A DNA stretch of 64,000 nucleotides from a virus: the IMG/VR virus record IMGVR_UViG_3300020185_000013, positions 32,001-96,000 of that record; one strand, written 5' to 3'. Positions 22,301 through 57,945 of this stretch are shown here, in pieces. How positions within the stretch are numbered: position 1 is the stretch's first letter; the number at the start of each line of letters is the position of its first letter. A model generated the notes under the pieces. It was not told the DNA's origin, ran no database searches, and worked only from the letters and a program-made list of their open reading frames with translations. The position numbers were made by a program, and so were the translations under genes.

Positions 22301-23222
22301 GTTCAAAGAACCGGTTTATAAACTAAATCTATCAACCAACTACGATGTAAATAAATCACTAGCATTTTATAATAGGTACAATAGAATGGGTACTGCATTT
22401 AACGTTGGATTTATTAGTGACGAAGGGATTCATGATGCTAAATGGGGAAAGATTAAAAACCATTTCTACCATAAGGTAAATGAAATCAATACGCTTGGCG
22501 TAACTAAACTTTCAGAAAGCAGTGAATACTTACCACAATACCCATTAATTAATGAGGTTACAATTGATAAAAGAGATATTAATGTCTTCAAGTCTTCATG
22601 GGAAAATAACTATTATGTTAGATCTCTAAGTGGAGGAGATACTGAATTGGTACCTGGTACGATTTCAACTCTTGAAGAAAAATCATACCTTGGTTCTACT
22701 GTAATAAAATACAAACCATCGTATTCGATTTATGAATTTACATCGACTTCTGTGAATTCTGCATCTGATTTGGATGTTATATTGAAAAACAATTCAAATA
22801 AAACAGACGTTGTCTATTTTGAAGATGATAATAATTTGATTGTTGACTTCTATTTAGGAGGAATCGCAGCAAAAACAATTGGTGAAGATGGGTTATTTGA
22901 AACTATTCAAAAGTTTGTCGATCCAGCAAACAGTGCAGGAGATAAAACAACAATTGATGACGATGTAACATTGTATGCTGCTAACAATATGGTTGGACTA
23001 TACAGACTTGATGATATTCAAATCTATGTTAAAGAGTACAAAGGCTCTCCATCAGAAGTAGTTTCAGCAGATAGTATTGATACAATCGACAATGGGTATA
23101 CTAAAGCAAGCGATTTTACATATCAATTACATGGTAAAAAGCCACTAAATTTTAGACTAATATATAATAAAAAGTTAGGCTATTCATATAGCATGAAGGC
23201 GCTGATAAAAATACAAGCATAA
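16332..23222 (+). CDS. Giant (2296 aa) virion structural protein
   Basis: Uninterrupted ORF with a Cys-containing N-terminal third and an SGT linker; structural context. Confidence 0.55.
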   Translation: MAFSTRIYFKDILSDPSLLCSGPHDTPVNLQSDGSGKFIVFYNEQNALLVGLNDSASIIDLGLNNIEIYRTQILADQNDPTGYAEAGYYASTEFDGTNTVSTTVYPYNNGSWGQPTLCQASSGTSGTSGTSGTSGTSGTSGTSGTSSNVKSFQIYYTSSTGSNGDYCQGTSIKNLYYDGASTFSTIEQIIYAHVTGAITLKIYTGPGNPPSASQITDLNDINQTGPLAILDLTPGEYGDVIDYFYINIDGTQNGWQHGSGANIDYTSTILVPTSDPGSTKQSALAAGWIPFYCPNSGASSIILNYGSDSTAFCGTPTNSTYYYYTGPGGPTYNTVDDLVSNGIRIWNNANSAVSGLDPNYTTDLAATGVYSHLSSYGYGFDNNTGTWFQSKITCALVGDPEPRAIDITVAQCTEYGEFVGFCHYPKSIVQVFYMSTVDLTLLEIVQSNIYLYTSADAAENTDYNELISYQAFGDAQNSIPSTQYFIWTGSFYLGKNPTNGTERSDDPTANITQGHQCQTVSRTTPFSTEVLNTGGYKKFYAFYQCGSATIGQSANSFPVYVIDADVTLNEENYITDFVGFLNQNNKKTFAVNSCKCVEYIHTIYANTENEAKVLLENYYDRVVSEDPANLGIFSESEVLVYDDCTDCSSNTDPLSYKFPFVEEAVPPTPGPNLDTEKNYQLDNVSKPLLRTNPKLSTNVKMVVDSEGRIYLDSINANQGLSNTSYKKYELSSDSRYAYDLSRYYNENNTPLDSAFDTKRDYSDFSVLDDYSKQFEEDYQYGTKLNASKLYSEDFRMMAPIWLDVNMPKKFVIYRVEDPTPEFDYTEGATDKLTRVTRMIRNSRIVKVFDLSSSSSIGKYLRNHVQDEFFPDSPLTVTMEKNQKSNFNGIDLVKGGFVEKGEYIYDDFVKQDTTLIDANNFITDGFRRNKVACANLINLEFMFNDTTATDYSVNRYFGLYVDDLDSGIGEISNIKNGLVRFKNIESYLQGNDPTYAIPEYSLLQSAGVLAYARIKENFYNLDSSNAYNANRYNVAVKATDEEINSKLGINSKDVSVQIKPNETAGGDYLKATVIDIPGNNDLFRVTAVKREAVRLKIVANVGGETVRIEDALGNYIDFTMGATGSISWANFEAAWNSVNQTSPQQTIEFYNRYELSVEADSTQINSIVLRERSANLVDNGIFVTTVTSIIGVKEIYTNVNQTIGTFRADNTGSLGKRKFNKDFFSTIGEKSDVAFAIAGAIRNYTDFDAYSVNEYVYIISEVNGYQLMNCTLLVADSNQIDFITAENSDTNNELNLSSDLTLNYSSYFFNGGHSAGKSVYVDSNVVSQIQAGDYLPTKYSGKYNLVLDVVEDTTERSGNFNKIILQDKSSLTAGNYNVFSKNLMALGLFSAYDIHDMNFDFYDTSNSELKELKYETRENMDYEPYEQAVLGVGNILPDNVISEDFLLNPIEYFANLLPVLGGEDSKTLKVDRISSEYDRLKENYLKEYSTDSRVVPNINKWVLKDMLNVREQPYYLNTNEAFGKTNFSPDITVEGRNRDAFSHEWFYLDKWPEYLTYNQYNDGFSYIDFVEGFDVTKDIFKNVDHDYFDRFMVSEGHELVVPFIDPLDPTQNKETIFYTKTELTKKYTPIKGGSDIDFASTIFKGLKFEFKKRKDGSSQNTAEFVKNSEFNNYRFSTLVKVNTNADTNNIEYEFIKNDKFEYVIFFIQLNIEDSFIGDYINRKYLYELEHKVVVDTDQNGQNFYRYADVNIDGAIELSSVNWAAQGPYTLKGVIHNDGSSPAFSNQMPSQEDGTYGRLKIDYGLGGDFYMDVVKVISIDQLQVLGAPYTVDSLGVKQPVNPYTIPYQAQLNAKYVYEGGGVNAHELLLSQLSANKVFDKVNNNSTEIKYTTILEDGTELTNQFSVRMDDGNEIIKHSKLVTSIDGDTPKSYKLKKETIGYVIEDGTEYYPFLIRHNGRYTVDLTPVVTFTDIYGFNKVIRDQLTYDTGFKMFKEPVYKLNLSTNYDVNKSLAFYNRYNRMGTAFNVGFISDEGIHDAKWGKIKNHFYHKVNEINTLGVTKLSESSEYLPQYPLINEVTIDKRDINVFKSSWENNYYVRSLSGGDTELVPGTISTLEEKSYLGSTVIKYKPSYSIYEFTSTSVNSASDLDVILKNNSNKTDVVYFEDDNNLIVDFYLGGIAAKTIGEDGLFETIQKFVDPANSAGDKTTIDDDVTLYAANNMVGLYRLDDIQIYVKEYKGSPSEVVSADSIDTIDNGYTKASDFTYQLHGKKPLNFRLIYNKKLGYSYSMKALIKIQA
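16695..16766 (+). repeat. 8 x 9-nt coding repeat (SGT)8
   Basis: (tca/agt/agc/tcg)ggaact repeated eight times. Confidence 0.9.
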
Positions 23223-28011: not shown

Positions 28012-28562
28012 TGATTCTAAATAGTAGAAATAATACATACGATTTTAGGTTCCCTAGAAACTTTATCCCAGATGAAGTAGCAGATAAGTACAGAAAGTAC
28101 CTTGCTAAGATTCCAGGTAATATAATGGCGGAGCCAATCGACTTTGTAAATTATTCAGTACAGGGTCTTAATGTTCCTGGAATTAGCTTTGATCCAGTAA
28201 CTCAAAATGACTGGGACGGTACAACAAGATATCATCGAGGTTCTCAACCAATCCAGAATACAGTAGAGAGACAATTTACAGTAACAATGCAGTTACTTGA
28301 CGGCTTCATTAACTACTGGATTATGCAAGATACCCTTTTATATTATTATTCAAGAGGAACTAAGGATCCGTTTACCCAAGACCTAACACTACGAGTACTT
28401 GATGCTGAAGGTGCAAGTGTTGCATTCTTTAAATTTGAGAATCCAATTATGAACTCAATTAATGAGTTGACCTTGAATATGAGTGATAACGTGGCCGACT
28501 TCAGTACATTCGAAGTTACATTCTACTACAATAAGATAGACTTACAAATCGAAATTGACTAA
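28011..28562 (+). CDS. Tail completion / tube-fold protein, T4 gp3-like
   Basis: VQGLNVPGISF..FTVTMQLLD..FEVTFYY fits the gp3/gp19 tube fold. Confidence 0.6.
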   Translation: MILNSRNNTYDFRFPRNFIPDEVADKYRKYLAKIPGNIMAEPIDFVNYSVQGLNVPGISFDPVTQNDWDGTTRYHRGSQPIQNTVERQFTVTMQLLDGFINYWIMQDTLLYYYSRGTKDPFTQDLTLRVLDAEGASVAFFKFENPIMNSINELTLNMSDNVADFSTFEVTFYYNKIDLQIEID

Positions 28563-28572
28563 TATATACAAT

Positions 28573-28950
28573 ATGAAAGATATTAAGACATTTAAAGAAT
28601 ACCTACAGGAACAACAAATTACTGAAGAGGATCTAAGAATCTTAACCGAAGGTTTAGAATCTGAGTGGACTTCAGAGCTTGAAGCGAAGGTTGATGAGGC
28701 AATTGAACAATTCGTTGCCGAATACTCTAATGAAAATGGAGAACTTGACATTAATAAATTTAATGAAGAGTTAACTAATGAAGGTTTATTAGGATCTATT
28801 TTTGGTGGTTTAACTGGATTTGCTTTAGGTAAATCAGTTGGTAAACTAATTGCTAAAGTGTTAGGTATTCAGAAGGGAGTATTTTACGATCTATTAACTT
28901 CAAGACTTGTAGGTGCTGCATTAGGTGCTGCTCTTGGTAAAAACATGTAA
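28573..28950 (+). CDS. CTS-tagged small protein with C-terminal glycine zipper
   Basis: ATG 28573 gives MKDIKTFKEYLQE just after AATATATA (28561). C-terminus GLLGSIFGGLTG..GAALGAALG. Confidence 0.55.
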   Translation: MKDIKTFKEYLQEQQITEEDLRILTEGLESEWTSELEAKVDEAIEQFVAEYSNENGELDINKFNEELTNEGLLGSIFGGLTGFALGKSVGKLIAKVLGIQKGVFYDLLTSRLVGAALGAALGKNM

Positions 28951-32534: not shown

Positions 32535-34043
32535 ATGGAGCTCAGTTTAACAGAGAATAAACAACTACTTAGAGTTGATGATGCTACTTCATTAGAGCTT
32601 GAACAGTTGAATATATCCTTGACCAAGAGAATAGAATCGTGGAGATTCAACCCTTTGGTCAAGAAAGGGGTATGGGACGGCTACATTACCTATATCAAGG
32701 ACGATAAGTGGATTCCTGCAGGTCTTTGGAAAGAGGTGATGGACGTCTGTAAAGAGTACAGGTTCGAGCTAAAGATTAATGGCATTAGTGAATTATTTGA
32801 CCGTGAAATTAATCCAGAATCATTTCAAAGTTGGGTAGAAGACTTCTTTGAAGATTCAGACATTACACCTCGTGACTATCAAGTCGAGGCTGCATATAAC
32901 ATTTTAAAGTTTAGAAAGTGTCTCTCAGAGCTTGCAACATCTGCTGGTAAGACACTGATATCATTCTTAACAGTTGCATATATTTTAGAGAAACAAAAGG
33001 CTGAAAAGATCCTGTTTATTGTACCAAACGTTTCACTTGTAATTCAAGCAAGTGAAGATTTTGCAGATTATAACTATCGAAACCAGGTAAACATAAAGAT
33101 TCAGCAAATTTATAGCGGTCAAAAGATCAGAGCTGGTAGAAACGTAGTGATTGGTACCTATCAATCATTAATTAAGAAGAAAGCCGAATACTTTGACCAA
33201 TTTGATGCTGTGATTATTGATGAAACACATAAGGCAAAATCACAGTCAATTAAAACGATCCTATCGAAGTGTAAAAATGCCGACTATCGATATGGCCTTT
33301 CTGGTACTATACCAAAGTCTGGAACCCTGGATCGACTAACACTAATGGCCTATACTGGTCCACTAATTACCGAAGTAAGTGCAAATTTCCTTCAGAATGA
33401 AGGTTATATTGCAAACTGTCGAGTAAAAGTTATTGAGATGGACTACGCAACCGAAGGCGCAAAGAACGCGTTTAAGGAAATGGCATTTAATAAATATGAA
33501 AGCAAAGACGTATTTAAATTTGAACAAAATTATATCATCAATTCGCCAGGCCGCCTCAACTTCATTTGTAACATTATTTCCAGAGTACGAGGTAATTCCC
33601 TTGTACTTTTCCATCGCATTGAGCATGGTAAGAAGATATATGAAAAGCTTAGACAGGAAAGTGATAAGACAATCTATTATGTTGATGGTGGAACTGACAA
33701 GGACATACGCGAAGAATACAAAAAGAAAATGGAAGCCGGTAATGAAGTTGTTATTGTCGCATCGTATGGTACCTTCTCGACTGGTATCTCGATCAAGAAA
33801 ATCCACAACATCTTCTTTACTGAATCGTTTAAGAGTGAGGTAATTATTCGTCAATCGATTGGCCGTGGATTGAGACAACATGAATCGAAGGACAGTGTTA
33901 CAATCATTGATTTTGTGGACGATATTAGTTCGCCAGACTGGGACAACTATCTTATTCGACATGCAAAGGCCAGACAAAAAATTTACAGAGAACAAAAGTT
34001 CAAATATGACATCAAAAAGGTTAAATTTGATGGAGATATATAA
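32535..34043 (+). CDS. uvsW: SF2 DNA helicase UvsW
   Basis: PRDYQ, ATSAGKT, IIDETH, GLSGT, SYGTFSTGISIK, QSIGRGLR. Confidence 0.93.
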   Translation: MELSLTENKQLLRVDDATSLELEQLNISLTKRIESWRFNPLVKKGVWDGYITYIKDDKWIPAGLWKEVMDVCKEYRFELKINGISELFDREINPESFQSWVEDFFEDSDITPRDYQVEAAYNILKFRKCLSELATSAGKTLISFLTVAYILEKQKAEKILFIVPNVSLVIQASEDFADYNYRNQVNIKIQQIYSGQKIRAGRNVVIGTYQSLIKKKAEYFDQFDAVIIDETHKAKSQSIKTILSKCKNADYRYGLSGTIPKSGTLDRLTLMAYTGPLITEVSANFLQNEGYIANCRVKVIEMDYATEGAKNAFKEMAFNKYESKDVFKFEQNYIINSPGRLNFICNIISRVRGNSLVLFHRIEHGKKIYEKLRQESDKTIYYVDGGTDKDIREEYKKKMEAGNEVVIVASYGTFSTGISIKKIHNIFFTESFKSEVIIRQSIGRGLRQHESKDSVTIIDFVDDISSPDWDNYLIRHAKARQKIYREQKFKYDIKKVKFDGDI

Positions 34044-34076: not shown

Positions 34077-35594
34077 ATGGCTAAATTACATTCATTTGAA
34101 GACTACGCAAAAATAAGACAAGAGCAAGTTTCAGCTGAAATTGAAGCACAAAAAGAAGCTGCTAGAGAAGAAACAGTAAGAAGTTTTAAAGATCTTCTTG
34201 CAGAGTATGGTGTTACTAAGGTTTCAGAATTAGATGAAGATCAAAGAGAAGAATTCTTTGGTAAACTAGACGGAACTGATCTAAATGAATCACTATCTCT
34301 TGTAACAGAAGGTACTCGTTCTTTCTTTGGTAAAATAAGCAAGAAGTCAGGAGACATCGAAGCAGTGTATATGCACTACGATGGTTACCCAGAAAATATG
34401 TTACCCCTAATCCAAAAGGGTTATAGTGGTGCTAAGAAAAAGAACATTGATGTAGTTCTACAAAATGGTGCAGGATCTGGACTAGAAGCTGACCCAAAGA
34501 AAATTAACTATTATAATGACGGAAATGAGCCATTAACTGGTAACATTGGTTCAATTAGAGATTTTATCAGCGATGCAAAACAATCGTGGGCAGAATTTAT
34601 TTACCTATACGATGAGAGAGATGGTAAATGGTATATGGCTGATACTTATGAAGATGATAATATGGTTCCAGCTTTTGAAGCATTTATCGGTGAAGCAGTT
34701 GTAGTTACTGGTAAGAGAGATGCTAAAAGAGTTATGACAGCATACGTTAAATTCTTTGAGAAATATCCAGCTTTAAGTAAAAAGGCTATAGGTGTTCCAG
34801 TTAAACATCATGTCGGTGCTGTTAGAGAATTATATGCAGAAGCAATGATTGACGCTAACTTTTCTAGAGAGCTCCCAGCAACTAAAAGAGCAATTCCTGG
34901 CGTAGTTTACTCAATCGATGTCAAGGTTGCAGAATTAAATAATGCATCTATTAGAATTTCAGCAGGTAAATTAATGGATATCTGTGCAGCAAACGGTAGT
35001 ATTATATCAGGTGCAGCTAAATTCTCAGGTATAGCAATTGTTGAAGGTACTGCAATGTACTTAGATTCAATTGGATATACTAAAGAAGCTGAAGATTTAA
35101 TGGCTAGATTCAACAAAGCTTTTAATGAATCTGCTCAAACAATGGAAGAAAGAATTGCTGAAGGTAATGCATTTGGTTCCGCAAGAGCAAAGGCAATTGC
35201 TGCAGGTAAAAGCGAATTTGAAGTTGATGGTAAAACATACAAACTTAAAGGAGTAGATGCTGATGATAAAGAGAATGCTGAAGAGTTTGCAAATGAGTCT
35301 GAAATCAATGGAGAACATACAAATCCAGCTGGTTATCCATCTCCATCCGGAGACTCTGAAGATGTTGAAGAAACTGAAAGAGAAGAGGTTGAAGTAATGG
35401 GAGAGGCTAAAGTTACTGAAGCTGAAGTAAAATCAGATGATGAATTTAAAGAGTATGCATTCACAGTACTTCAAAAAGCATTTGGTGAAGACTTTGATGA
35501 TGCTAAAGCACAAGAAGTAGTTGATGGTATTCTTTCAAAATCTGATGGAGACTATGGAGCTGCTGTTGGTATGCTAACATCATCTTTAGGATAA
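34077..35594 (+). CDS. Putative internal head (packaged) multidomain protein
   Basis: Late motif at 34035; N-terminal MAKLHSFEDY; GTRS..YMHYDGYP domain; EGNAF..GKSEFEVDGKTY module; many (L/V/I)xE sites. Confidence 0.55.
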   Translation: MAKLHSFEDYAKIRQEQVSAEIEAQKEAAREETVRSFKDLLAEYGVTKVSELDEDQREEFFGKLDGTDLNESLSLVTEGTRSFFGKISKKSGDIEAVYMHYDGYPENMLPLIQKGYSGAKKKNIDVVLQNGAGSGLEADPKKINYYNDGNEPLTGNIGSIRDFISDAKQSWAEFIYLYDERDGKWYMADTYEDDNMVPAFEAFIGEAVVVTGKRDAKRVMTAYVKFFEKYPALSKKAIGVPVKHHVGAVRELYAEAMIDANFSRELPATKRAIPGVVYSIDVKVAELNNASIRISAGKLMDICAANGSIISGAAKFSGIAIVEGTAMYLDSIGYTKEAEDLMARFNKAFNESAQTMEERIAEGNAFGSARAKAIAAGKSEFEVDGKTYKLKGVDADDKENAEEFANESEINGEHTNPAGYPSPSGDSEDVEETEREEVEVMGEAKVTEAEVKSDDEFKEYAFTVLQKAFGEDFDDAKAQEVVDGILSKSDGDYGAAVGMLTSSLG

Positions 35595-35602
35595 AAAATT
35601 AA

Positions 35603-35640
35603 AAAAAGTTTGGCCTAGATTTTTCTATGTCAAACTTTTT
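35603..35640 (+). terminator. Hairpin / intrinsic terminator
   Basis: AAAAAGTTTGGC..TAGA-TTTT-TCTA..GTCAAACTTTTT. Confidence 0.55.
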
Positions 35641-35643
35641 AAT

Positions 35644-35651
35644 TATATTTG
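35644..35651 (+). promoter_or_regulatory. Bacteroidota-type -7 promoter element (TAnnTTTG)
   Basis: TATATTTG ending 7 nt before ATG 35659; no correctly spaced TTTG -33 element seen. Confidence 0.35.
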
Positions 35652-35658
35652 TAACTGA

Positions 35659-36954
35659 ATGAAATTATTACTATCATATAGCGACTTTTTAGTTGAAAAG
35701 GCAAACCAAGACCTAAATGAGTGGAGAGATTCTCAACTTGTTATGGAAGGAGGTGCTGCTGGTCATATGTCACACCCGTTTGATGATAAATCTCTTACGT
35801 TTGGCGACTTTAAAAAACTAATCGAGGCAGGTCTTAAAGGAGAACTTAACTTCGAAGAAGAAGCAACTGAAAAGACGGATGGTCAAAACGTATTTGCAAC
35901 CATCCAGGATGGAGAGGTAAAGTTTGCACGTAATAAAACTGAGCTTAAGAATCCAATGTCACTGCAAGACTTTAAGAAAAAGTTTGAAGGTCATCCTAGT
36001 AAACTTGTTCAGGACACTTTCCAATTAGCTGCAGAGGATTTAGCGTCTCAACTAATTAAAATCTCACCAAAAGATCAAGAGAATTTCGATAATGGTAAGA
36101 ACTTCATGAATATGGAGTTAATCTACTCAAAGAACCCAAACGTTATTCACTATGACCGTGATGTAATACAGTTCCACGGCATTAAGATAACTGACGGTGA
36201 GGGTAATATCATTGGTGAAGACACAAAGCCAGCTAAGAGCATCGCAAGTGCTCTCGATAAAGTAGAGGCTACTATTGGTAAAACATTTACATTCATTCCA
36301 CCTCAAATTGTAAAACTTGGTAAAGATTTAGATTTTGAAGCTAATAAAGACAAGTTTATTAAAAAGGTAGAAGACCTACGTAAACAATATAACTTAACAG
36401 ATGCTGATGAGGTTTCTCGTTACCATGAAATGTGGTGGAGAGAGCAAATTGAATCTGTATTTGGAGATCTTCCACAAGACATTAAAGAGGGCCTACTATT
36501 AAGATGGGCATACGATGATAAGAAATCTCTAAACATGAGAAGTCTTGCTAAAACTATTACGCCAAAACAGGCAGATGCAGTTAAGCAATTCGATAAGAAT
36601 GATGTTAAGAAGAAATATAAAGAAAACATTAGACCGTTTGAAGATCTTTTCTTAGAACTAGGAAGTGTTATTCTTAAAAATGCTTCTAATTTTGTTGCAG
36701 CTAATCCAAGTGCAGAAATGCAAAGGCTACATAAAGAGCTTAGAGATGAAGCAGCTAAGATTAAAAAAGGAGGTAATATCGATCAAATCTCGAAGGTTGA
36801 AGCTGAATTAGCAAGACTTGACCGTATTGGAGGCATTGAGTCTATTATTCCAACTGAAGGTATTGTATTTACATATAAGGGCAAAATTTATAAATTAACA
36901 GGTACCTTTGCTGCAATTAACCAGCTAATGGGTATTATAAAATTTGGAAGGTAA
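35659..36954 (+). CDS. ATP-dependent RNA-ligase-fold nucleotidyltransferase (DUF6267-like)
   Basis: Motif I TEKTDGQN, III NMELIY, IIIa QFHGI, IV EGIVF, V KIYKL; N-terminal EGGAAGHMSHPFD. Confidence 0.6.
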   Translation: MKLLLSYSDFLVEKANQDLNEWRDSQLVMEGGAAGHMSHPFDDKSLTFGDFKKLIEAGLKGELNFEEEATEKTDGQNVFATIQDGEVKFARNKTELKNPMSLQDFKKKFEGHPSKLVQDTFQLAAEDLASQLIKISPKDQENFDNGKNFMNMELIYSKNPNVIHYDRDVIQFHGIKITDGEGNIIGEDTKPAKSIASALDKVEATIGKTFTFIPPQIVKLGKDLDFEANKDKFIKKVEDLRKQYNLTDADEVSRYHEMWWREQIESVFGDLPQDIKEGLLLRWAYDDKKSLNMRSLAKTITPKQADAVKQFDKNDVKKKYKENIRPFEDLFLELGSVILKNASNFVAANPSAEMQRLHKELRDEAAKIKKGGNIDQISKVEAELARLDRIGGIESIIPTEGIVFTYKGKIYKLTGTFAAINQLMGIIKFGR

Positions 36955-36955
36955 C

Positions 36956-37222
36956 ATGAAACATGTAAAATTATTTGAAGGATTTCTTAGTGAAAGAAAG
37001 GCTAGTCATTATATGGCTGAACTAGTTGACATACTATCAAACCCAGATTCAATGGAAATGATGCCAGAAGAATTTGTAGACTATCTTGTATCAAACTATG
37101 CAGTTGATGCCGATACAGCAGGAGACATTTTCGATATGTATTGGTCTCTAGGAGCTAAAGACAGATTTCATTACAATGATGATCAATGGATTAAGTTCCT
37201 TAATAAATTAGGAGTTAAGTAA
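36956..37222 (+). CDS. CTS-tagged small internal head protein
   Basis: ATG 36956: MKHVKLFEGFLSE. Confidence 0.65.
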   Translation: MKHVKLFEGFLSERKASHYMAELVDILSNPDSMEMMPEEFVDYLVSNYAVDADTAGDIFDMYWSLGAKDRFHYNDDQWIKFLNKLGVK

Positions 37223-37224
37223 TC

Positions 37225-37374
37225 ATGAAACACGTAAAACTATTTGAACAGTTTCTAAACGAAGCTTCAGTTTTAGATCGTAACTCAATGATGGGTTGGA
37301 TCACAGCATATATTGACGGACCTAGAACAATGGTACGATGCAGGCACAGTAATGATCTGGCCAGCTTAATTTAA
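37225..37374 (+). pseudogene. CTS-tagged small gene, apparently internally deleted/frameshifted
   Basis: MKHVKLFEQFLNEASVLDRNSMMGWITAYIDGPRT then loses protein-like character, while the +1 frame reads WYDAGTVMIWPA* (37331-37369). Confidence 0.5.
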
Positions 37375-37380
37375 ATTATT

Positions 37381-39219
37381 ATGGCGCTACAAAACTTAAA
37401 GACATATTATAGCGAGTCAAATACTAATGACTTTCAAGCGATGCTTAAACTTCCATGTGTTGTTACTGAGAAGTTACAAGCGTCGTCTTTTCATGTTCAA
37501 TCAACAGTAGAAGGCTACAATTACTTCAAGAGTGGAAGTAAAAAGCCAATGAATGCAGTCGATAGAACAATCGTAAAATACTACGAATCGGCAATTAGCC
37601 ACTTTGATTCAATCAGTGAAGATAACAAAGAGGAAATGCCAAAAGACTGGAAGTTTGGATTTGACTATATGATAGATTCAAAAACGGTAAATATCAAATA
37701 CGATAGAATACCAAAGAACAACTTAATGTTAACACACATTCAAGTTTTAAATCCAGCAGATCATTCTCTTATTAAAAAGGTAATTAGAGACCCAAAGATT
37801 CTTAATAAATGGGCTGATGTACTAGAGGTACAAAGACCACAGGTTCTATTTAGTGGAAGTTTAAATGAGTTCCAAAGAGAACAACTTTCTGAATTAATGG
37901 CTCTATCAGATGCTGAGTATGTTAAAGTATTTGAAGATATTACATTCTCAAGAAAAATGTACAATATCTTTAACCCAGCAATGAACTCAACTGCGTTAAA
38001 TGAGGGTCTTGATGGAACTATTGATTCAATTGTGATTAACTTTTTTGATTCTACTTCAGTTAAGAACTTTAAGATTTGTGAAGATGTTGTAATCAAGAAA
38101 GAAGAAAGAGAACCATCTCATATGTACCAGCTTTCACTTCTAGATCTAGTTGAATATTTTACAACATATGATATTGAAAGCATCGAATTAAACGAAGAGA
38201 AAGCAGATCAAAGATACATTGAATTAATTTCTAAACTATTCAATGCATATGTTTCAGAAAACGCTACCAAATATGTTGGAGTAACATTTGATTCAGCTGA
38301 TTTTGCTTCTTCTCCAGAATTTAAACTTAACACTAAGTTTATTAAGAACGAGAAGACAATTGAGTATGTTTCAAATGAGGTTCTCGAGGAACTATATAAA
38401 ATAGCGCTTGGCTCTTTTAGAAAAAGAAGGGTTAAAGAAACACAGATCATTAATGCTGATCTAATGAGACAGATCAACGAGATTGTCGATAAGATCGATA
38501 ATTCGATTATGGCAAAAAGCAATGAAGCATCGGTTATGACATTCAAAACGTATTTACAAAACCAAGGACTAAAACACCAGGAGAGCCCAATTACTGAAGC
38601 TCTTAATGTTAAATATCCTGAACAACAGAAGCTAGTTAATATGTTTGTTGGTAGATTCCAACCATTTACACTAGGACATGCAAAGGTATTAGAAACGATC
38701 CATAAGCAAAATGGACATCCAGTTGTAATCTTCCTAATTAAGTCTAAAACTAAGAAGAAAGAAGATGCATTCTCTAGACCTTATGATGAGGACACTCAAA
38801 TTGAAATGCTAAATAAGTTAAAGTCAAAATATCCAATCGAAAAGGTTTATGTACTACCAACCGCAGGCATCGACCATCTATTTAATGCAATGAGAGCAGA
38901 TGGATATGAGCCTGTACTATGGGGTACTGGAACTGATAGACTTAAAACATATTCGCATCAAGTCGATAAACCAGTTTATAGAGAAGATTTAGGTGTTAGA
39001 ACTGATTTTGGTCTATTCGAAATTCCAAGAACTGGTAAAAACATTTCAGCAACTCAGGTTAGAAATGCGATGTTAGCTGGAGATGAGAAACTATTTAAGA
39101 AGTTAACCCCAAGCGAAATCCATGGAATGTATGATGAACTAAAGGCTAAGCTAGAAAAGTCGATGGCTGCTAATGAAGCATCACTACTGACGTTCAACGA
39201 GTTTATTAAGAATATATAA
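37381..39219 (+). CDS. Degenerate ligase-fold domain fused to HIGH-family nucleotidyltransferase (cytidylyltransferase/NMNAT-like)
   Basis: N-terminal VTEKLQASSF..DSIVI..NFKI; C-terminal GRFQPFTLGH, GTDR, ISATQVR. Confidence 0.7.
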   Translation: MALQNLKTYYSESNTNDFQAMLKLPCVVTEKLQASSFHVQSTVEGYNYFKSGSKKPMNAVDRTIVKYYESAISHFDSISEDNKEEMPKDWKFGFDYMIDSKTVNIKYDRIPKNNLMLTHIQVLNPADHSLIKKVIRDPKILNKWADVLEVQRPQVLFSGSLNEFQREQLSELMALSDAEYVKVFEDITFSRKMYNIFNPAMNSTALNEGLDGTIDSIVINFFDSTSVKNFKICEDVVIKKEEREPSHMYQLSLLDLVEYFTTYDIESIELNEEKADQRYIELISKLFNAYVSENATKYVGVTFDSADFASSPEFKLNTKFIKNEKTIEYVSNEVLEELYKIALGSFRKRRVKETQIINADLMRQINEIVDKIDNSIMAKSNEASVMTFKTYLQNQGLKHQESPITEALNVKYPEQQKLVNMFVGRFQPFTLGHAKVLETIHKQNGHPVVIFLIKSKTKKKEDAFSRPYDEDTQIEMLNKLKSKYPIEKVYVLPTAGIDHLFNAMRADGYEPVLWGTGTDRLKTYSHQVDKPVYREDLGVRTDFGLFEIPRTGKNISATQVRNAMLAGDEKLFKKLTPSEIHGMYDELKAKLEKSMAANEASLLTFNEFIKNI

Positions 39220-39239
39220 AAAAACAAATTTTATAAAAA

Positions 39240-41396
39240 ATGTCAAATTTTAACGACTTTATTAACAACTTAGACGAGTCTAGAAAGATTACTCTAAAGA
39301 GAAGATATACTGAAAACCATCCGGCAATTGAGGCTGGAAAGGTTGCAAGAGTCAGAAATAAAATGCTAGAAGCTATTGCTGATGGTAAGATTACTCAAGA
39401 AGAATTCAATGCAATCTTAAAAGAGTTTTCTACAGATTCTGGAAAATGGATGCGTAGAAACGCAAAATACTTCTCGGTATCTGAAGATGGTATTTCACTT
39501 TCAACCTTTGGTAAAAGAGCACTTTCATCAGTTACAGTAAATGAAAGCGAAGAAATTCTATTCGAAGCAACCGTCGAAATGGACGCAATGGATCCAGATA
39601 ACAAAGACTTCTTAAAGTTCTTAAAGAAGCATAGAGTTAAGATTATTAATAAAGAAATGGAAGGTCCAGGTGGTGGAACTCCAGTTATTACAATGCAAGG
39701 TAAAAGAAAGGATCTTGAGGCAGTATTAGCAGACGAAGAGTTTGGTTGGGCTGATCTAGATCTAGCAGAATATATTGAAGAATCAGTAGTTACTGAAAAC
39801 TATGAAGTGATCTATAGCGATGGTGTAAGTGCTATGAAAAAATTCAGAAGTGAAAAACAAGCTCTTGACTTCATGAAGCAAACCATTGCTTCTAACAAGA
39901 AATTAAGAGATATAGCAGTCTACAAACCGGGTATGCATTCAACTACTCAAACTGAATTAGTTGTTAAATTCTGGGGAGATGGTTCTTATTTAGATAATGT
40001 TTCTAAGAAGGATCCAGAATTAGCTGCTAAGAAATTAGAAGAATCAGTAGATGCTGATCATGTTGAAGAGGGTAGAGCATTTGTTGCAGCTGCTAGAAAG
40101 GCAAAAGATGAAGGCAAGGAAGAATTTGAATATGATGGCAAAACTTACCCAGTAACTATCAAAGAAGAAACAGAAACAGAAGATATAAAAATGGAAAACA
40201 AAAGAATGTTTGAATCATTTACTAATTTTGTAAATAATTTATCAGTGAACGAAGATGTATTCGCTGATTTAGAAGCTGCTATTTCAGACATGGACTTTGA
40301 TGCATATCAAAACCTAGCATTTGAATTTGGAGTAGACGATGGAGATCCAAACCAAATGATGGATTTTATTTACAATGAGCTTGACAAGAAGGGAGCTAAA
40401 CTACTAATTAAGAACATTAATAAAGGAGTTTATGAATCTGTAGTTAACGAGGCATTTAGTTCAATGAAACTACAGTCAATCTTAACAAGTGCAGGTTCTA
40501 TGCCAAAAGATTTTGCTAAGGCTTTTTACCAAATGGCTAAAATCCAATTAGATAAAGTTCAAGATGTTGATATTATCGAAATAGATCCAGAGCAGGCTAG
40601 AAAAGAAAAGAGAAAAAGCGCAGTATACCTATACTTCACAACAAATGAAAAACCAAACCCATATGCTGGTAGAAATTCTTGGGGAGTTACAACAATTCCA
40701 GGAAACACACTGCTTGGAGCAACTAATGGTTCAAACGAATGGCTAGCTACAGATTACGCAAGATCTTGGGGATCTGATAGAACAAAGACGTTATCTAAAA
40801 CTAAGAGAAATGACGGATCTGGTTTCGGAAAAAGTGCAGCTAATGATACTTGGGGTTCAGGTATTTCAAGTCTATCTAAAGTTGCTGAACTTGCTGATAG
40901 AGCATACGTTCTAGACTTAGATATTTTAAGAGCAAGATATTCATCAACCGCAAAAAGAGATGAAAGAACCGCTGCTAAAAAAGGAGCAACTGCGTTCCAG
41001 AGTGATAAGGACTTCAAGAAACAAAATCTTGACAGATACCATACTATTTTAGCAGACAGAGCAGCTTCAATGCCAGTAGACAAAGAGGTTCTAAAAGCAA
41101 TTGATGTAGTTACCTCTCAAATTAAAGATGGTTTAGCTACTGGTGAAAAAGGAAAGTATGGAGACGTTATTATTGGAAAGGATCCTAAAGGCCGCGAGGT
41201 TAAACTAAGAGATGCTTCTAACGTAATGCAAAATCTTCTTGATGACTTTAACAGATATGTAGATTACACTGAGCAAGCAAAGCGTGAGGAAGAGGCAGGT
41301 TATGGTAGCGATTACTATGCAAGAGAAGTGAAGAACTATGCTAAGTCAATTAAAGACAGAATCTCTAAGATTGAAAAAATGGATTACGTTTGGTAA
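39240..41396 (+). CDS. Putative packaged polyprotein-like internal head protein
   Basis: Late motif at 39211; MSNFNDFINNLDE start; internal MFESFTNFVNNLSVNE; repeated VNE/VTE/LEE boundaries; EGRAF..GKEEFEYDGKTY module. Confidence 0.55.
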   Translation: MSNFNDFINNLDESRKITLKRRYTENHPAIEAGKVARVRNKMLEAIADGKITQEEFNAILKEFSTDSGKWMRRNAKYFSVSEDGISLSTFGKRALSSVTVNESEEILFEATVEMDAMDPDNKDFLKFLKKHRVKIINKEMEGPGGGTPVITMQGKRKDLEAVLADEEFGWADLDLAEYIEESVVTENYEVIYSDGVSAMKKFRSEKQALDFMKQTIASNKKLRDIAVYKPGMHSTTQTELVVKFWGDGSYLDNVSKKDPELAAKKLEESVDADHVEEGRAFVAAARKAKDEGKEEFEYDGKTYPVTIKEETETEDIKMENKRMFESFTNFVNNLSVNEDVFADLEAAISDMDFDAYQNLAFEFGVDDGDPNQMMDFIYNELDKKGAKLLIKNINKGVYESVVNEAFSSMKLQSILTSAGSMPKDFAKAFYQMAKIQLDKVQDVDIIEIDPEQARKEKRKSAVYLYFTTNEKPNPYAGRNSWGVTTIPGNTLLGATNGSNEWLATDYARSWGSDRTKTLSKTKRNDGSGFGKSAANDTWGSGISSLSKVAELADRAYVLDLDILRARYSSTAKRDERTAAKKGATAFQSDKDFKKQNLDRYHTILADRAASMPVDKEVLKAIDVVTSQIKDGLATGEKGKYGDVIIGKDPKGREVKLRDASNVMQNLLDDFNRYVDYTEQAKREEEAGYGSDYYAREVKNYAKSIKDRISKIEKMDYVW

Positions 41397-41415
41397 TCAA
41401 AAATAAAATAAAACG

Positions 41416-41733
41416 ATGAAACACGTACAATTATTTGAGCAGTTCGTAGATGGAACAAACTCAACAGTTAATGAAAATAAATACGCTAAAGCTGGCAAAT
41501 TAGGTTATAATGACCAATTCTTAGGAAGAAAATCTCTTTCTAAAACTTTAGCAGTAGACTTAGGTTTAAATCCAAACCACGAGTTTGGCGGTGGAGACTG
41601 GTTAGGTTTTGACTATGTATCACTTTATGCAACAGGTGGTAAAAAAGCAGGAACTATCTTAGATGACGCTTTAACAGGAAAGTACACTTACGACGAGTTA
41701 AAGGCTGCAGCTGCAGAATTCTTAGGACTATAA
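41416..41733 (+). CDS. CTS-tagged small internal head protein
   Basis: MKHVQLFEQFVD..VNE. Confidence 0.65.
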   Translation: MKHVQLFEQFVDGTNSTVNENKYAKAGKLGYNDQFLGRKSLSKTLAVDLGLNPNHEFGGGDWLGFDYVSLYATGGKKAGTILDDALTGKYTYDELKAAAAEFLGL

Positions 41734-41739
41734 TAAGTT

Positions 41740-42339
41740 ATGCCAAGTACATCTAAATCGCAACAAAGACTAATGGGAGTCGCATATGCTGTTAAATCTG
41801 GCGATATGCAAATCTCTGATGTTGATATGACATATAGAGATAAGGTAAAAGATCTTGTTGATGGTATGACACTCAAACAATTAAAAGATTTTGCAGAAAC
41901 TAAGCACGAAGGATTACCAGAAGTTGCAGAAAATATCACACCTGCTAACATCGGTGGAATGGGGCCAGTCATGCTCCCAACTTCATCAACAAATGGCTCT
42001 GGTGATGTTCCTGCAGGTCAAGGTGATGCGAAGCAAGAATATAAAAAGAAACGTAAAAAGATGAAATACGTAAAAACATTTGAATCTTTCTCTTCAGTCA
42101 ATGAAGAGTATATTGAACTTCCAAGTCTTGATGTACCTTCAACTGACCTAATCGAAGCATTTAAAGAGTGGTATAAAGATACTGCTGACAATTGGGAAGA
42201 ATTCAAAAACGACATGGCAGAAGATTCAGTTGATGAAGCTGCTAAGAATGCTCAAATGGAAATCTTAGCCTACCTTTCTAACGAGATGAATAACATTATT
42301 AGAGATAGAAAGTTTAAGGTTAGAATGGACCTTAAATAA
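41740..42339 (+). CDS. DUF3008-like N-terminal domain plus internal CTS-tagged domain
   Basis: MPSTSKSQQRLMG..LKDFAETKHEGLPE; internal MKYVKTFESFSSVNE. Confidence 0.55.
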   Translation: MPSTSKSQQRLMGVAYAVKSGDMQISDVDMTYRDKVKDLVDGMTLKQLKDFAETKHEGLPEVAENITPANIGGMGPVMLPTSSTNGSGDVPAGQGDAKQEYKKKRKKMKYVKTFESFSSVNEEYIELPSLDVPSTDLIEAFKEWYKDTADNWEEFKNDMAEDSVDEAAKNAQMEILAYLSNEMNNIIRDRKFKVRMDLK

Positions 42340-42350
42340 AGAAACTAATT

Positions 42351-42881
42351 ATGAAACACATAAAATTATTCGAACAGTTTATCAACGAATCTCATTTTAC
42401 TGCAGGCGACAGCGTAGAATGTATTGATAGCGGAATGATCGGATCAGTTATTGGATCTACTGGAAATGGTGATGAAGAAATCTATATTGTCTCTATTAAT
42501 GGAGAAACTAAAGAGTATTCACCAGAAGAGCTAACACTGGTAGAGTCAGTACTTAATGAAATGGACTCAGAAGCTGCTTTACTTTTAGCAGATGAGGTTA
42601 GTGGTGAAGTATACACTGCAAAACTAAAAGGCAAATCAGCTACTATTAAAGCAACGACGACAACTAAAACTTGGGATGATGGTGTTCCAGTTCTAAAAGA
42701 TTTAGCTAGAGGCAGTGCAAAGTCAGTCAAGTTTGAACTATATCAAAGACCTTTTAAAGTGATTCATGACGTAGCTCACGATTGGTTCTACTTTACAGAT
42801 GGTGGAAAATGGTATGGTCTGCATAGTAATGATGGCTATTATGAACCAAGTGATTTACCATTTGAAATGACACTTGATTAA
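42351..42881 (+). CDS. CTS-tagged internal head protein with SH3/KOW-like segment
   Basis: MKHIKLFEQFINE; FTAGDSVE..GMIGSVI..YSPEELTLV. Confidence 0.6.
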   Translation: MKHIKLFEQFINESHFTAGDSVECIDSGMIGSVIGSTGNGDEEIYIVSINGETKEYSPEELTLVESVLNEMDSEAALLLADEVSGEVYTAKLKGKSATIKATTTTKTWDDGVPVLKDLARGSAKSVKFELYQRPFKVIHDVAHDWFYFTDGGKWYGLHSNDGYYEPSDLPFEMTLD

Positions 42882-43096: not shown

Positions 43097-44497
43097 ATGC
43101 TATTAGATATAGAACAAAAAGACCAAGAAATCATCGTCTCATATTACGATAAAGAAGGTAAAGTAGCATTTAAAAGATATCCAATCTCTCAGTTTGAAAA
43201 CTGGGTAGTCACTGAAGAAAAAGATAAGTGGAAAGACGGAACATTTAGAAACTGGGACGGTCGACCAATTAAAAGACAACGTGCCCGTAACTTCAACAAG
43301 TTCTCATTAGTGTATTTTATGGACTCTCTTCCTGAAAAAGATCAGGAAGAAATCTTTGCATTTAATATGCCAAAGACCTACTTTGTCGATATTGAGACTG
43401 AGATTGTTGATGGTTTCCCAAAAGCAGAAGAGGCAAAGAGTAGAATTCTTACCTTTTCGATTATCACACCTGATCGTAAGGCAATTGTGCTAGGTCTTGA
43501 TGATTTATCTAGCGAACAAATTAAGAAGATTGAAGATGACACACTGAAACACTTCAAGAAATACGATCAAGATTGGGAATTCAGTTACTATAAATTTAAG
43601 GACGAATACAATATGCTGTACACGTTCTTACATAAATTTATGCCAAAGTTCCCAATGATGACAGGTTGGAACTTTATTAACTATGACTGGCAATATATTG
43701 TTAATCGATGTAGGCGTTTACAAATTGACCTGACTGAAGTTGCGATCACTGGAGAACTTGATAAGACTGACTCAAGACCCCTACATATGGGTATTCTTGA
43801 TTATATGCAACTTTATGATAAGTATGACCGAAGTGTAAAAGTAAAAGAGTCAAATAAACTTGACTTTGTTGCTGGGCAGGTTCTTGACGTTGCAAAGATC
43901 AAGTATACGGGTGGTCTACAAGATTTATATGAGAATGACTTCCAAAAATACGTATTCTATAATGTAGTCGATTCTATTTTGGTATACTATATTGACCAAA
44001 AGCTAAAATCGATGGAAGTAATTATGACATTGGCAACTATTACAAAAATGCCATTGTATAAAGCAGCTTCTCCAGTTGCTGTAACCGAAGCATTGATGGC
44101 CCGTAAAATGGCTGAAATGAATCGTAAAATTGGAGTTGACTATAATCAAGAGGATAACAAAAAAGACGGCAAGTACGCAGGTGCATTTGTAAAACAACCA
44201 TTAGTTGGTTACTATTCTGGTGTAAGTGCATTTGACTTTGCGTCACTATATCCTTCAGTAATGAGACAATTTAACATCTCACCAGATGCTTACGTTGACC
44301 TTATTCCAGAGAATGAAATTGAAGAGCGTCGTAAAAACATAGATGAAATTGTTTGTGAAAATGGTGTAGTATATAAGAAAGAAGATTCGATCTTGAAAAA
44401 GATTCTTAGCGATTTATACGCACAGAGGAAACAATATAAGTCTATATCATATGATTATTATGAAAAGGCTCATGAACTTAAAAAAATATTTAAGTAA
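43097..44497 (+). CDS. gp43A: Family B DNA polymerase, N-terminal subunit (3'-5' exonuclease, motif A)
   Basis: ExoI DIETE, ExoII GWNFINYD, ExoIII YNVVD, YAGAFV, DFASLYPS; stops after the first finger helix RKQYK. Confidence 0.9.
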   Translation: MLLDIEQKDQEIIVSYYDKEGKVAFKRYPISQFENWVVTEEKDKWKDGTFRNWDGRPIKRQRARNFNKFSLVYFMDSLPEKDQEEIFAFNMPKTYFVDIETEIVDGFPKAEEAKSRILTFSIITPDRKAIVLGLDDLSSEQIKKIEDDTLKHFKKYDQDWEFSYYKFKDEYNMLYTFLHKFMPKFPMMTGWNFINYDWQYIVNRCRRLQIDLTEVAITGELDKTDSRPLHMGILDYMQLYDKYDRSVKVKESNKLDFVAGQVLDVAKIKYTGGLQDLYENDFQKYVFYNVVDSILVYYIDQKLKSMEVIMTLATITKMPLYKAASPVAVTEALMARKMAEMNRKIGVDYNQEDNKKDGKYAGAFVKQPLVGYYSGVSAFDFASLYPSVMRQFNISPDAYVDLIPENEIEERRKNIDEIVCENGVVYKKEDSILKKILSDLYAQRKQYKSISYDYYEKAHELKKIFK

Positions 44498-48375: not shown

Positions 48376-49578
48376 ATGAACATAGAAGAGTTAAAGAATA
48401 AACCAACCGATCAATTAAGTAAAAGTGAAGCGGAGTTCCTCATAAACTATTATGAGGAACTTTCCGCTAAGTACACTGCTTATGAACAGGCGGTAAAGGT
48501 AACTTTGAACTCGATCTATGGTGCATTTGGTAACAAGTGGTTTCACTTCTTCAATATTGATATTGCAGAATCTATCACATTACAAGGTCAAAATGCGATC
48601 CTGTATTCTGAAAGTATTCTAAACAAGTACTTTCAAGAGTTCTTTCATAAGGATACGATGGTTCATGAACACTTCAATATTAAGGTAAAACACCAGCTTG
48701 AACGACCATCAGTAATCTATATCGATACTGATTCTTGTTATGTTCAGTTTGAAGAAATGTACAATTCAATTGAGTGGTTAGGAGAACCTCTTTCAATCGA
48801 TACATTTATCATTGAGATTTATGCCCTTAGACTAAAGGACTATATCATTAAAGCAATGGAAAAGTATGCAGAAAAGAGAAACACTGACAACTTCTTGGTA
48901 TTTGAACTTGAAACTGTAGCATATGGTGGTATTTGGATGAGTAAGAAAAAGTACATTCAAAATATTGCATGGGATGATAAACTTGAATCAACCGATCGTC
49001 ACCCTTCATTAAAGAAGATTAAGACAATCGGATTCGATACTATTCAGTCATCTACACCAACTTTTGTTAGAGGTAAATTAAATGAAGCTCTTAAAATCCT
49101 ATTTAAGAAGCATGAGAAACCAACAGCAGAAGATCTACAAGAACTTGTTACTTTCATGAAGCAAACGAAGAAAGAATTCAAACTTGCAGATATTGACGAT
49201 ATTGCGTTCAATAAGAGAACTAATAATATTGAAAAGTATATCGTTGATGACCAAATTGAACTTCAGTTTGGATCGAAATGTCCACCGAATGTAAAAGCGG
49301 CAGGATTCTACAATTACTTATTGAACAACAATAAAAAATATAAAAACAAGTATAAACTAATTGGTAACGGGGAGAAGTTAAGAATCTATCATGTGAAAGG
49401 TAATATAAGTGATATGTTCGCATATATGCCAAGTGAACATCCTTATGAGTTTGCTCCACCTGTAGATTATGACACTCAATTTGAAAAGTCGATGATTGAT
49501 CCACTTAATCGTGTACTAAAAGCAATTGGACTTCAGACTCTTGATACTAATCTAATTTATGCTTCAGCATTATTTTAA
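48376..49578 (+). CDS. gp43B: Family B DNA polymerase, C-terminal subunit (motifs B, C, thumb)
   Basis: EQAVKVTLNSIYGAFGN, ITLQGQ, YIDTDS, KKKY, SSTP; C-terminal ASALF. Confidence 0.9.
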   Translation: MNIEELKNKPTDQLSKSEAEFLINYYEELSAKYTAYEQAVKVTLNSIYGAFGNKWFHFFNIDIAESITLQGQNAILYSESILNKYFQEFFHKDTMVHEHFNIKVKHQLERPSVIYIDTDSCYVQFEEMYNSIEWLGEPLSIDTFIIEIYALRLKDYIIKAMEKYAEKRNTDNFLVFELETVAYGGIWMSKKKYIQNIAWDDKLESTDRHPSLKKIKTIGFDTIQSSTPTFVRGKLNEALKILFKKHEKPTAEDLQELVTFMKQTKKEFKLADIDDIAFNKRTNNIEKYIVDDQIELQFGSKCPPNVKAAGFYNYLLNNNKKYKNKYKLIGNGEKLRIYHVKGNISDMFAYMPSEHPYEFAPPVDYDTQFEKSMIDPLNRVLKAIGLQTLDTNLIYASALF

Positions 49579-57768: not shown

Positions 57769-57945
57769 ATGAGTTTATTACAGATACTTATTATTCTTGC
57801 CTTTGGCCTTTGGGGCTACAAGAATTTTGAAAATAAAAATAGAGAGCCATGGAGAGGATTCTTATGGGGATTCTTTTTAGGCCTGATTGGTGTCGCTATT
57901 ACCTATATGTTTATCACTAAAGAAATCGAAGAAAATAATGGCTAG
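57769..57945 (+). CDS. 58-aa two-TM membrane protein (not in ORF track)
   Basis: MSLLQILIILAFGLWGYKNFENKNREPWRGFLWGFFLGLIGVAITYMFITKEIEENNG. Confidence 0.65.
   Translation: MSLLQILIILAFGLWGYKNFENKNREPWRGFLWGFFLGLIGVAITYMFITKEIEENNG

Follow-up and report, generated by a model that had tools for sequence, protein, structure and literature searches.

A 13-residue peptide shared by many genes of an uncultured T4-related jumbo phage resembles the capsid-targeting sequence of phage T4

Tagged genes of the cassette and beyond

We analyzed a stretch of 64,000 nucleotides (nt), called the window below, that comprises bases 32,001-96,000 of the 130,479-bp viral contig IMGVR_UViG_3300020185_000013 from IMG/VR; all coordinates are window positions. 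Judged by its genes, this contig (estimated by CheckV to be 46% complete) is a fragment of an uncultured T4-related jumbo phage. It contains a cassette of genes on the + strand (34077-42881) whose products carry copies or variants of a 13-residue peptide with the consensus M-K-[HY]-[IV]-K-[LT]-F-E-x-F-[ILV]-x-E, hereafter the tag. From its sequence, we consider it rather probable that this peptide is a much expanded counterpart of the capsid-targeting sequence (CTS) of phage T4, i.e., a signal for loading proteins into the phage head and for their processing by the prohead protease.

Copies of the tag open four of the smaller cassette products. These are an 88-amino acid (aa) protein (36956-37222; MKHVKLFEGFLSE; 24.4 bits with a hidden Markov model (HMM) of the tag), a 49-aa open reading frame (ORF; 37225-37374; MKHVKLFEQFLNE; 34.0 bits), a 105-aa protein (41416-41733; MKHVQLFEQF, MKHVQLFEQFVDG...TVNE; 15.8 bits), and a 176-aa protein of two modules (42351-42881; MKHIKLFEQFINE) that meet at the joint ESVLNE|M (nt 42543-42560), with the bar marking the putative cleavage position. 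The initial annotation had quoted these four peptides as well as an internal copy at 42061, and all are present at the given starts on the + strand. No Pfam family above cut-off was found for the 88-aa protein, while the body of the 105-aa protein recurs as an internal module in other loci (L037, L019). The similarity of the 49-aa ORF to a module spanning 107-213 aa in relatives (T030 and T046 read ...NE|AK(T/I)L(D/T)R..MM) is limited to the first ~25 residues; thereafter, the ORF diverges and stops, and it is probably a truncated and decayed copy of this module. Within the phage-genome collection, the 176-aa protein has no protein match and the cassette DNA no near match.

Several longer products combine multiple modules. 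The 505-aa polyprotein at the head of the cassette (34077-35594) begins with a weak form of the tag, MAKLHSFEDY (MAKLHSFEDYAKI), and has a joint, LSLVTE|G (nt 34293-34310), just ahead of a phrog_1987 domain (residues 79-197). The same domain directly follows a full tag (...INE|GTR) in the related loci L016 and L058, and other modules of this polyprotein recur behind ESVVNE or ESVVTE linkers in loci L065 and L046. A 718-aa polyprotein (39240-41396; tag variant MSNFNDFINNLDE) has the joints ESVVTE|N (nt 39780-39797), LSVNE|D (40239-40253), and ESVVNE|A (40434-40451), and every one of its modules is found elsewhere, where it follows either an N-terminal tag directly (P0011, P0003, L001) or a linker. 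One module of ~65 residues (...GKxEFExDGKTY...) is common to both polyproteins (41.5% identity, E = 2e-5) and is the sole similarity found among the cassette bodies. The initial description of these bodies as unrelated consequently holds for 35 of the 36 protein pairs, which lack any similarity at E <= 0.01 when compared without their tags, and fails for this one. Finally, a 199-aa fusion (41740-42339) consists of a DUF3008 domain (PF11450 at 9.4e-10, residues 4-61), a Gly-rich stretch, the sequence KKKRKK, an internal tag (MKYVKTFESF, residue 108, nt 42061), and a module, an architecture that is found in many loci (P0003, P0005, L043, L052, L024, and others). The untagged DUF3008 domain (MPSTSKSQQRLMG.AYA.KKG...) regularly heads polyproteins (41740-42060 and homologs).

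The two remaining cassette products are larger and conserved. The first is an enzyme-like protein of 431 aa (35659-36954) with an EKTDGQN motif, 2070 homologs, and the tag variant MKLLLSYSDFLVE at its start (nt 35659-35697). Among 12 orthologs (74-84% identity), the N-terminal pattern [YF]-x-x-F-[LI]-x-E is kept with F10 and E13 invariant, and the EKTDGQN motif is invariant in 13/13 sequences of the family. A protein atlas leads from this protein to DUF6267 clusters. A relation to the ATP-dependent RNA ligase fold, with its KxDG nucleotidyltransferase motif, was considered for it, and sequence searches of Pfam and the PDB gave no match. Its AlphaFold2 model (mean pLDDT 63) has no Foldseek match in the PDB at E <= 0.001; the top one, T4 Rnl1 at E = 0.46, is not significant. 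The second is a protein of 612 aa (37381-39219) with a cytidylyltransferase/NMNAT-like C-terminal half (PF01467 at 9.3e-09, residues 421-562; weak matches to NMNAT structures, E ~0.01). It ends, as the initial annotation had pointed out, in a tag-like tail, SLLTFNEFIKNI (nt 39181-39216). Its family has 645 homologs at E <= 1e-10, and the C-termini of the 114 full-length sequences among the best 120 homologs read TF[DNEK]xF[ITVL]xx in 108 cases and close variants of it in 6, with a Glu 2-6 residues upstream of the tail in 107/114. The 431-aa and 612-aa proteins show no relation to each other by BLASTP. Conservation hence supports the proposal that the tag is used at internal and C-terminal positions too. 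Regarding the looser N-terminal copies, those at 35659 and 39240 are backed by orthologs, whereas the one at 34077 stays weak.

Outside the cassette, the tag opens a 125-aa protein (28573-28950, + strand; MKDIKTFKEYLQE) and a very acidic 123-aa protein (61037-61408, + strand; MKYVKLFEQFIKE) encoded between the portal and protease genes in the position of T4 gp67/gp68, hereafter the slot protein; both copies had already been listed in the initial annotation. Upstream of the window, the 32 kb of contig hold seven further tagged genes, and another two are located downstream. What had been described as a nine-kb cassette is therefore part of a genome-wide set, whose proteins range from 49 to 718 aa.

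The tag peptide and the joints between modules

A regular expression for the tag, which was composed post hoc, fits 15 of the 154 called ORF starts in the contig (17 with two ortholog-supported variants), i.e., ~1 gene in 10, as compared to 4 of 917 internal Met and none of 263 spurious six-frame ORF starts. Of the four internal fits, one is a double Met, another is the internal tag at 42061, and a third is found in the C-terminal tail of the 612-aa protein. The HMM built from strict tags gives seven matches of >= 15.5 bits, every one of them at a + strand ATG start, with a best score of 8.1 bits on reversed sequences. Similarly, a looser DNA pattern for MKxxxxF[EDKN]x[FY] has 12 forward, 0 reverse, and 0 control matches in the contig and 0-1 matches in T4, PTm1, LR756500.1, and Mel-JY01. 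When the cores of 17 tags are aligned, position 0 is F/Y in 17/17, position +3 is F/Y/W in 17/17, and position +4 is I/V/L in 12/17. The tag end F-[ILV]-x-E is found in 9 of these 17 tags, in 10/10 orthologs of the slot protein, and in 13/13 members of the 431-aa protein family. From copy to copy, nearly all tag positions show synonymous codon differences, and the DNA in front of the genes is not shared either, so that it is the peptide on which selection acts.

Beyond this contig, the strict tag pattern is present in at least 132 stretches of IMG/VR, with 137 unique tagged ORFs among the matches listed, and has no match across 185,579 bacterial and archaeal species represented by one genome each. 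Related records contain 4-39 loose tag matches each, controls 0-2. Of the 133 tagged IMG/VR proteins with >= 60 aa, we scanned 87 against Pfam (near-duplicates having been dropped by eye), and only 6/87 have a family above cut-off, so that the bodies are mostly orphans. The families are DUF5661, DUF5824 (twice), CTP_transf_like, ATP-grasp, and a marginal Peptidase_C25. An Acb1 / 2H-phosphoesterase match on a tagged protein reached 21.9 bits against a cut-off of 27 and was not counted.

Tags and the linkers inside polyproteins end alike, having E-x-φ-φ-N-E in common, and the linker takes the form E-S-V-V-(N/T)-E at module borders. For at least eight module families, some copies follow the tag directly and others a linker, with the Glu marking the border; these families include the three modules of the 718-aa polyprotein, the phrog_1987 domain of the 505-aa polyprotein, DUF5824, and the module of which the 49-aa ORF retains the start. 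The 176-aa protein illustrates this well: The tag stands at the start of 21/28 of its homologs, and its C-terminal module is preceded either directly by the tag (…FINE|MD…) or by a different module to which it is joined via ES[IV][VL]NE|. In the AlphaFold2 model of this protein, the pLDDT is below 50 at residues 62-70 and at least 80 from residue 71, directly after ESVLNE. Across the junctions examined, 20/50 fall exactly on a φ-φ-x-E site by ungapped extrapolation; in 5 of these 20, the site belongs to a full tag whose upstream stretch is mis-called or fused. The hexamer E[SA][ILV][ILVT][NT]E occurs 13 times in tagged and 16 times in other proteins of these loci, compared to 0.1 and 0.3 in shuffles, in counts that include homologous copies and not only independent events. 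Control hexamers (reversed, D-for-E, Q/S-for-N/T) are at or below chance, and the linkers listed comprise 25 distinct sequences; on its own, the four-letter motif φφ[NT]E is too common within one genome to be informative. Sequences resembling the linker can be found in the T4 record in gp23 (FLTE|A), gp24 (LLRE|S), and gp67 (GLIE|A), at what we take to be the cleavage positions of these proteins.

Head genes and promoter-like motifs

The + strand carries 150 of the 154 crudely called ORFs of the contig, which encodes a T4-type core comprising UvsW, UvsX, a gp41-like helicase, gp46/47-like nuclease subunits, a head-closure protein, and a DNA-end protector. Toward the end of the window, a gp55-like late sigma factor (57938-58312, + strand; phrog_234, 1.4e-10) is followed by a T4-type portal protein (59425-61020, + strand; PF07230, 1.5e-70) whose closest counterparts in the phage-genome collection are those of uncultured huge phages (LR756500.1, 59.9%), Lak phages (36%), and Sphingomonas (Sphingobacterium) phage PAU (31.6%). 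Behind the slot protein lies the gene for a 666-aa S77 prohead protease fused to a scaffold (61458-63458, + strand), which matches PF03420 with 51.5 bits at a cut-off of 27 as well as phrog_207 at 1.9e-42. Its protease domain aligns with T4 gp21 (BLASTP E = 1e-13), placing GELDHP/ISSRAAG opposite GELNHP/VSSRGLG. Residues E11, H73, S128, and S129 are invariant in the protease-scaffold alignment (A1), with E11 in 12/12 sequences, and we presume that the conserved His and Ser are the catalytic residues of peptidase S77. The N-terminus of this protease has a conserved LLIVE|M, kept as LL[IL][VL]E in the same alignment, and the N-terminus of T4 gp21 has LIE-9 according to the part available of PMC9026906. 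The window ends in the 5' part of the major capsid gene (63552-63998, + strand), whose match to PF07068 (8.2e-4) is below cut-off because merely 149 aa of the full 485-aa ORF fall inside the window. Candidate protease sites in the capsid protein are LINE|A (residue 7), VIEE|A (20), and LYE|D (44), all upstream of the Gp23-profile match.

The tag is tied to these head genes in related phages, too. Orthologs of the slot protein are tagged in 9/11 related IMG/VR records, the two without tag being the most distant, and M1, F7, F10, and E13 are invariant in their alignment (A2); T4 gp67 likewise has an acidic tail in the T4 record. An S77 protease in an ORF of 620-750 aa is encoded in 12/15 large tag-bearing IMG/VR records, and the other three are estimated to be only 43-54% complete. 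No tag was found in Mel-JY01 in a loose scan. The cultured phage PAU (JQ362498) has a sister tag, M-K-[TS]-[LI]-x-x-L-[YF]-E..LNE, with 17 forward, 0 reverse, and 0 control matches. Of these, 13 lie between positions 100,248 and 120,295 of its genome, in and around a head module that extends from portal to major capsid (108-117 kb), and their carriers include gp152, annotated in GenBank as "scaffolding", and gp142 and gp154, annotated as "internal capsid protein".

Many genes of the contig, tagged or not, are preceded by the motif ATATATA[AGC], which has 34 forward copies (29 of them intergenic) and 3 reverse copies. It mostly lies 3-35 nt before a gene, including those for the portal, the protease-scaffold fusion, several tail-region proteins, and nine tagged proteins, and 83 nt upstream of the capsid gene; exemplary positions are 28562, 34036, 39212, 59393, 61429, and 63461. 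By analogy to T4, we infer that the motif is a late promoter. In the cassette, copies of the form ATATATAA are found on the + strand at 34036-34043, 33 nt before the first cassette gene (34077), and at 39212-39219, 20 nt before gene 39240, and the remaining cassette genes come so shortly after these two that they could be co-transcribed with them. The copy at 28562-28569 (+ strand) is just 3 nt from the ATG of gene 28573. The same short distance is seen at several tagged genes (TGATATATAGAAT-ATG), whose mRNAs would be leaderless or nearly so if the motif is indeed a late promoter. A promoter-like motif also precedes a tail-region ORF of 2296 aa (16332-23222) that has a partial match to phrog_31887 (unknown function) alone.

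Between the cassette and the head genes, a family-B DNA polymerase is encoded in two ORFs (43097-44497 and 48376-49578) that are ~3.9 kb apart. The N-terminal exonuclease part corresponds to positions 93-495 of phrog_262 and the C-terminal part to positions 489-841, and two ribonucleotide reductase genes and a 247-aa ORF lie between the halves.

Head loading, its alternatives, and known systems

Since the tag closely resembles the peptide that loads proteins into T4 heads, the phage probably packs many proteins into its own head and may also deliver them together with its DNA. Late-type promoters would transcribe tagged genes together with head genes, and the amphipathic tag would then dock each protein on the assembling core, which would be composed of the protease-scaffold fusion and the tagged acidic slot protein. 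There, the S77 (gp21-type) protease would cut after the final Glu of the tag (φ-φ-x-E|) and, in polyproteins, also at the E-S-V-V-(N/T)-E| joints, freeing several unrelated modules inside the head so that a single tag could load them all. The C-terminal form of the tag core (TF-x-x-F-I-K-N-I with a Glu a few residues upstream) and the internal version behind DUF3008 seem to serve the same purpose. The freed proteins would remain in the head with the DNA and might enter the host at infection. That they are injected and act in the host is a possibility that we hold with some reservation, i.e., with less confidence than head targeting and processing as such, which we consider rather probable. More tentative still is the broadest version of this idea, in which a widespread clade of ~280-kb marine T4-related phages would deliver a ready-made "early proteome". 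Around 10% of genes (30-40 per genome) would be head-loaded by one tag in N-terminal, internal, or C-terminal position, with polyproteins cut at ESVV(N/T)E joints into dozens of modules and injected with the DNA. Such cargo would include the ligase-like/NMNAT-like pair, and the joints would double as in-frame swap points for plug-and-play cargo.

A number of observations weigh against this interpretation. The tagged proteins are not basic (median pI 5.3 versus 5.2 for the rest, p = 0.39), and the families of the 431-aa and 612-aa proteins are 72-96% identical over more than 100 relatives, i.e., they are by their sequences conserved enzymes and not fast-changing cargo. A Microcystis phage fuses domains of both types without any tag, and the tagged gene products are numerous for the inside of a capsid. 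Glu is found at the canonical position 13 (+6) in just 9/17 contig tags, with D, G, V, or another residue in the other eight. The motif is the sole basis of the promoter interpretation, and the homologous copies among the counted linkers lower the number of independent cases. Moreover, the S77-bearing relatives LR756500.1, i.e., the phage with the nearest portal (no tag in a loose scan and none in 41 kb that were read), and PTm1 (S77 present, no such tag found) are without the tag. For PAU, we found neither a proteomics paper nor a basis for the "internal capsid protein" annotations in the literature. The initial annotation had read the tag as a capsid-targeting signal with reference to the CTS of T4 internal proteins. 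The targeting part of this reading has gained indirect support from the T4 CTS positions, the S77 protease, the slot gene, the sister tag of PAU, the linkers, and the late-promoter-like motifs. Calling the cargo "effectors" was a guess that fits poorly with the highly conserved and enzyme-like families of the 431-aa and 612-aa proteins and with the lack of basic character.

The same observations feed other explanations. Tagged proteins might reach the prohead and be cut there, yet serve as accessory core or scaffold for a very large head and be degraded and expelled like T4 gp22, gp67, and gp68, without any delivery into the host. This would agree well with the best-conserved carrier being the acidic protein in the gp67/68 slot, with the scaffold of PAU itself being tagged, and with the acidic to neutral, core-like nature of tagged proteins that is unlike that of T4 internal proteins. 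We nevertheless consider it unlikely because many carriers are folded or enzyme-like with no obvious scaffolding role (the CTP-transferase-like, ATP-grasp, DUF5661, DUF5824, and KxDG proteins) and because the cuts would fall at domain borders, not inside domains. It is no more likely, in our view, that the tag is an address or docking helix for a target other than the capsid, e.g., a phage-made compartment, a hub protein, or a chaperone, with ESVV(N/T)E as flexible linkers or sites of another protease. The capsid link for this clade is indeed not direct, conserved enzymes that are tagged here work untagged in another phage, and one gene in ~10 carries a tag. However, such a function would leave unexplained why the tag agrees with the T4 CTS at each functional residue, why it is found on head-module genes both here and in PAU, why it co-occurs with S77, and why the linker fits the type of site cut by T4 gp21.

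The common start of these genes could also reflect a constraint on nucleic acids, i.e., on the translation-initiation region or on recombination joints for cassette shuffling, and not a peptide signal at all. The region is AT-rich with MK starts, and modules clearly move between genes at tags and linkers. Yet residues stay constant even though almost all tag positions show synonymous codon changes and the DNA upstream is unconserved, orthologs with 74-84% identity retain these residues, and internal and C-terminal copies are conserved as peptides, which together make this explanation very improbable.

If the tag is a head-loading signal as we propose, capsid targeting as known from T4 would be no peculiarity of T-even coliphages but an old way of loading heads that is in wide use and that, in some jumbo phages, has been expanded ten-fold and coupled to the processing of polyproteins. 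A simple sequence rule would then list what uncultured phages carry into the cell and thus offer a place to seek anti-defense and host-takeover proteins. Furthermore, a short portable tag with a defined cut site could be used to package foreign proteins into the heads of phages other than coliphages. With PAU, a cultured phage with a sister tag is at hand in which the idea is directly testable.

Among known systems, the closest comparison is with T4 itself, the CTS of which is given as MKTYQEFIAE in the accessible portion of PMC8442874. According to the excerpt of PMC9026906 at hand, residues 4 and 7 of this peptide serve targeting and residues 8 and 10 govern processing, with gp21 cutting after L/I-x-E. 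F7, F10, [ILV]11, and E13 of the contig tag have the same spacing as these four functional positions. The pattern M-K-x(1-5)-[FY]-x-x-[FY]-[ILVM]-x-E is found in T4 in three places alone, i.e., at the starts of ipII, ipIII, and gp61.1, and in the contig at six tagged genes, with 0-1 control matches. ORF 61.1 (NC_000866, 18966-19130, minus strand; 54 aa, hypothetical) begins with MKTFKEFIKE. As with IPII and IPIII of T4, the contig genes thus combine a short N-terminal propeptide of two aromatic residues three apart, followed by I/L/V-x-E, with unrelated bodies and an encoded S77 protease; T-even internal proteins, too, are described as having only the CTS in common in the sections available of PMC3012670. 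The two systems differ in the length of the peptide (13 versus 10 residues), in its reach (~10% of genes versus three in T4), and in its additional use at internal positions and in a C-terminal form. While T4 internal proteins are described as highly basic in the available text of PMC8442874, the carriers on the contig lack this character, and large conserved enzymes are among them. Joints of the cleavage type inside polyproteins are seen here, whereas none were found described for T4 in the accessible parts of these sources. The tag-like tail of the 612-aa protein family with its Glu just upstream is what would be expected of a C-terminal propeptide as in T4 Alt and gp21, which have N- and C-terminal propeptides according to the source parts consulted. 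However, this family has no sequence relation to Alt, and the processing of its tail is putative.

An N-terminal peptide of this type also opens many small genes of phage PAU in the neighborhood of portal, protease, scaffold, and capsid; we found no paper on this tag set in the literature. The PAU tag is one residue longer and has K-L-N-E for F-I-N-E, and the set is centered on the head module and extends to the scaffold. The phiKZ-like giants 201phi2-1, phiKZ, and SPN3US resemble the contig in that many proteins inside the head are cut after Glu by a gp21-related protease and in having paralogs with identical N-termini. Their propeptides, in contrast, are mostly >= 100 residues long with the motif S/A-x-E, they are not T4-core phages, and a short portable tag is not described for them in the accessible text of PMC5694885, from which this comparison is drawn. 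Polyvalent proteins of phages and conjugative elements share the arrangement of many unrelated domains per polypeptide and are thought to enter the host with the DNA, as described in a passage citing Iyer et al. 2017 (PMC5512222). By comparison with that account, the contig modules are small and have a short, defined joint that fits a head-protease site and stands behind a CTS-like tag.

In the openly readable literature, our search found no paper tying the CTS to metagenomic or jumbo T4-related phages, nor a description of the expanded, jointed form. The initial annotation had put forward the cassette as an undescribed system. The tagged proteins of the contig lack the small size and highly basic character of IPI-III as cargo, while the sequence-level features of the T4 system that we tested are found here. 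On these features, the system of the contig is rather an expanded variant of the CTS and internal proteins of T4.

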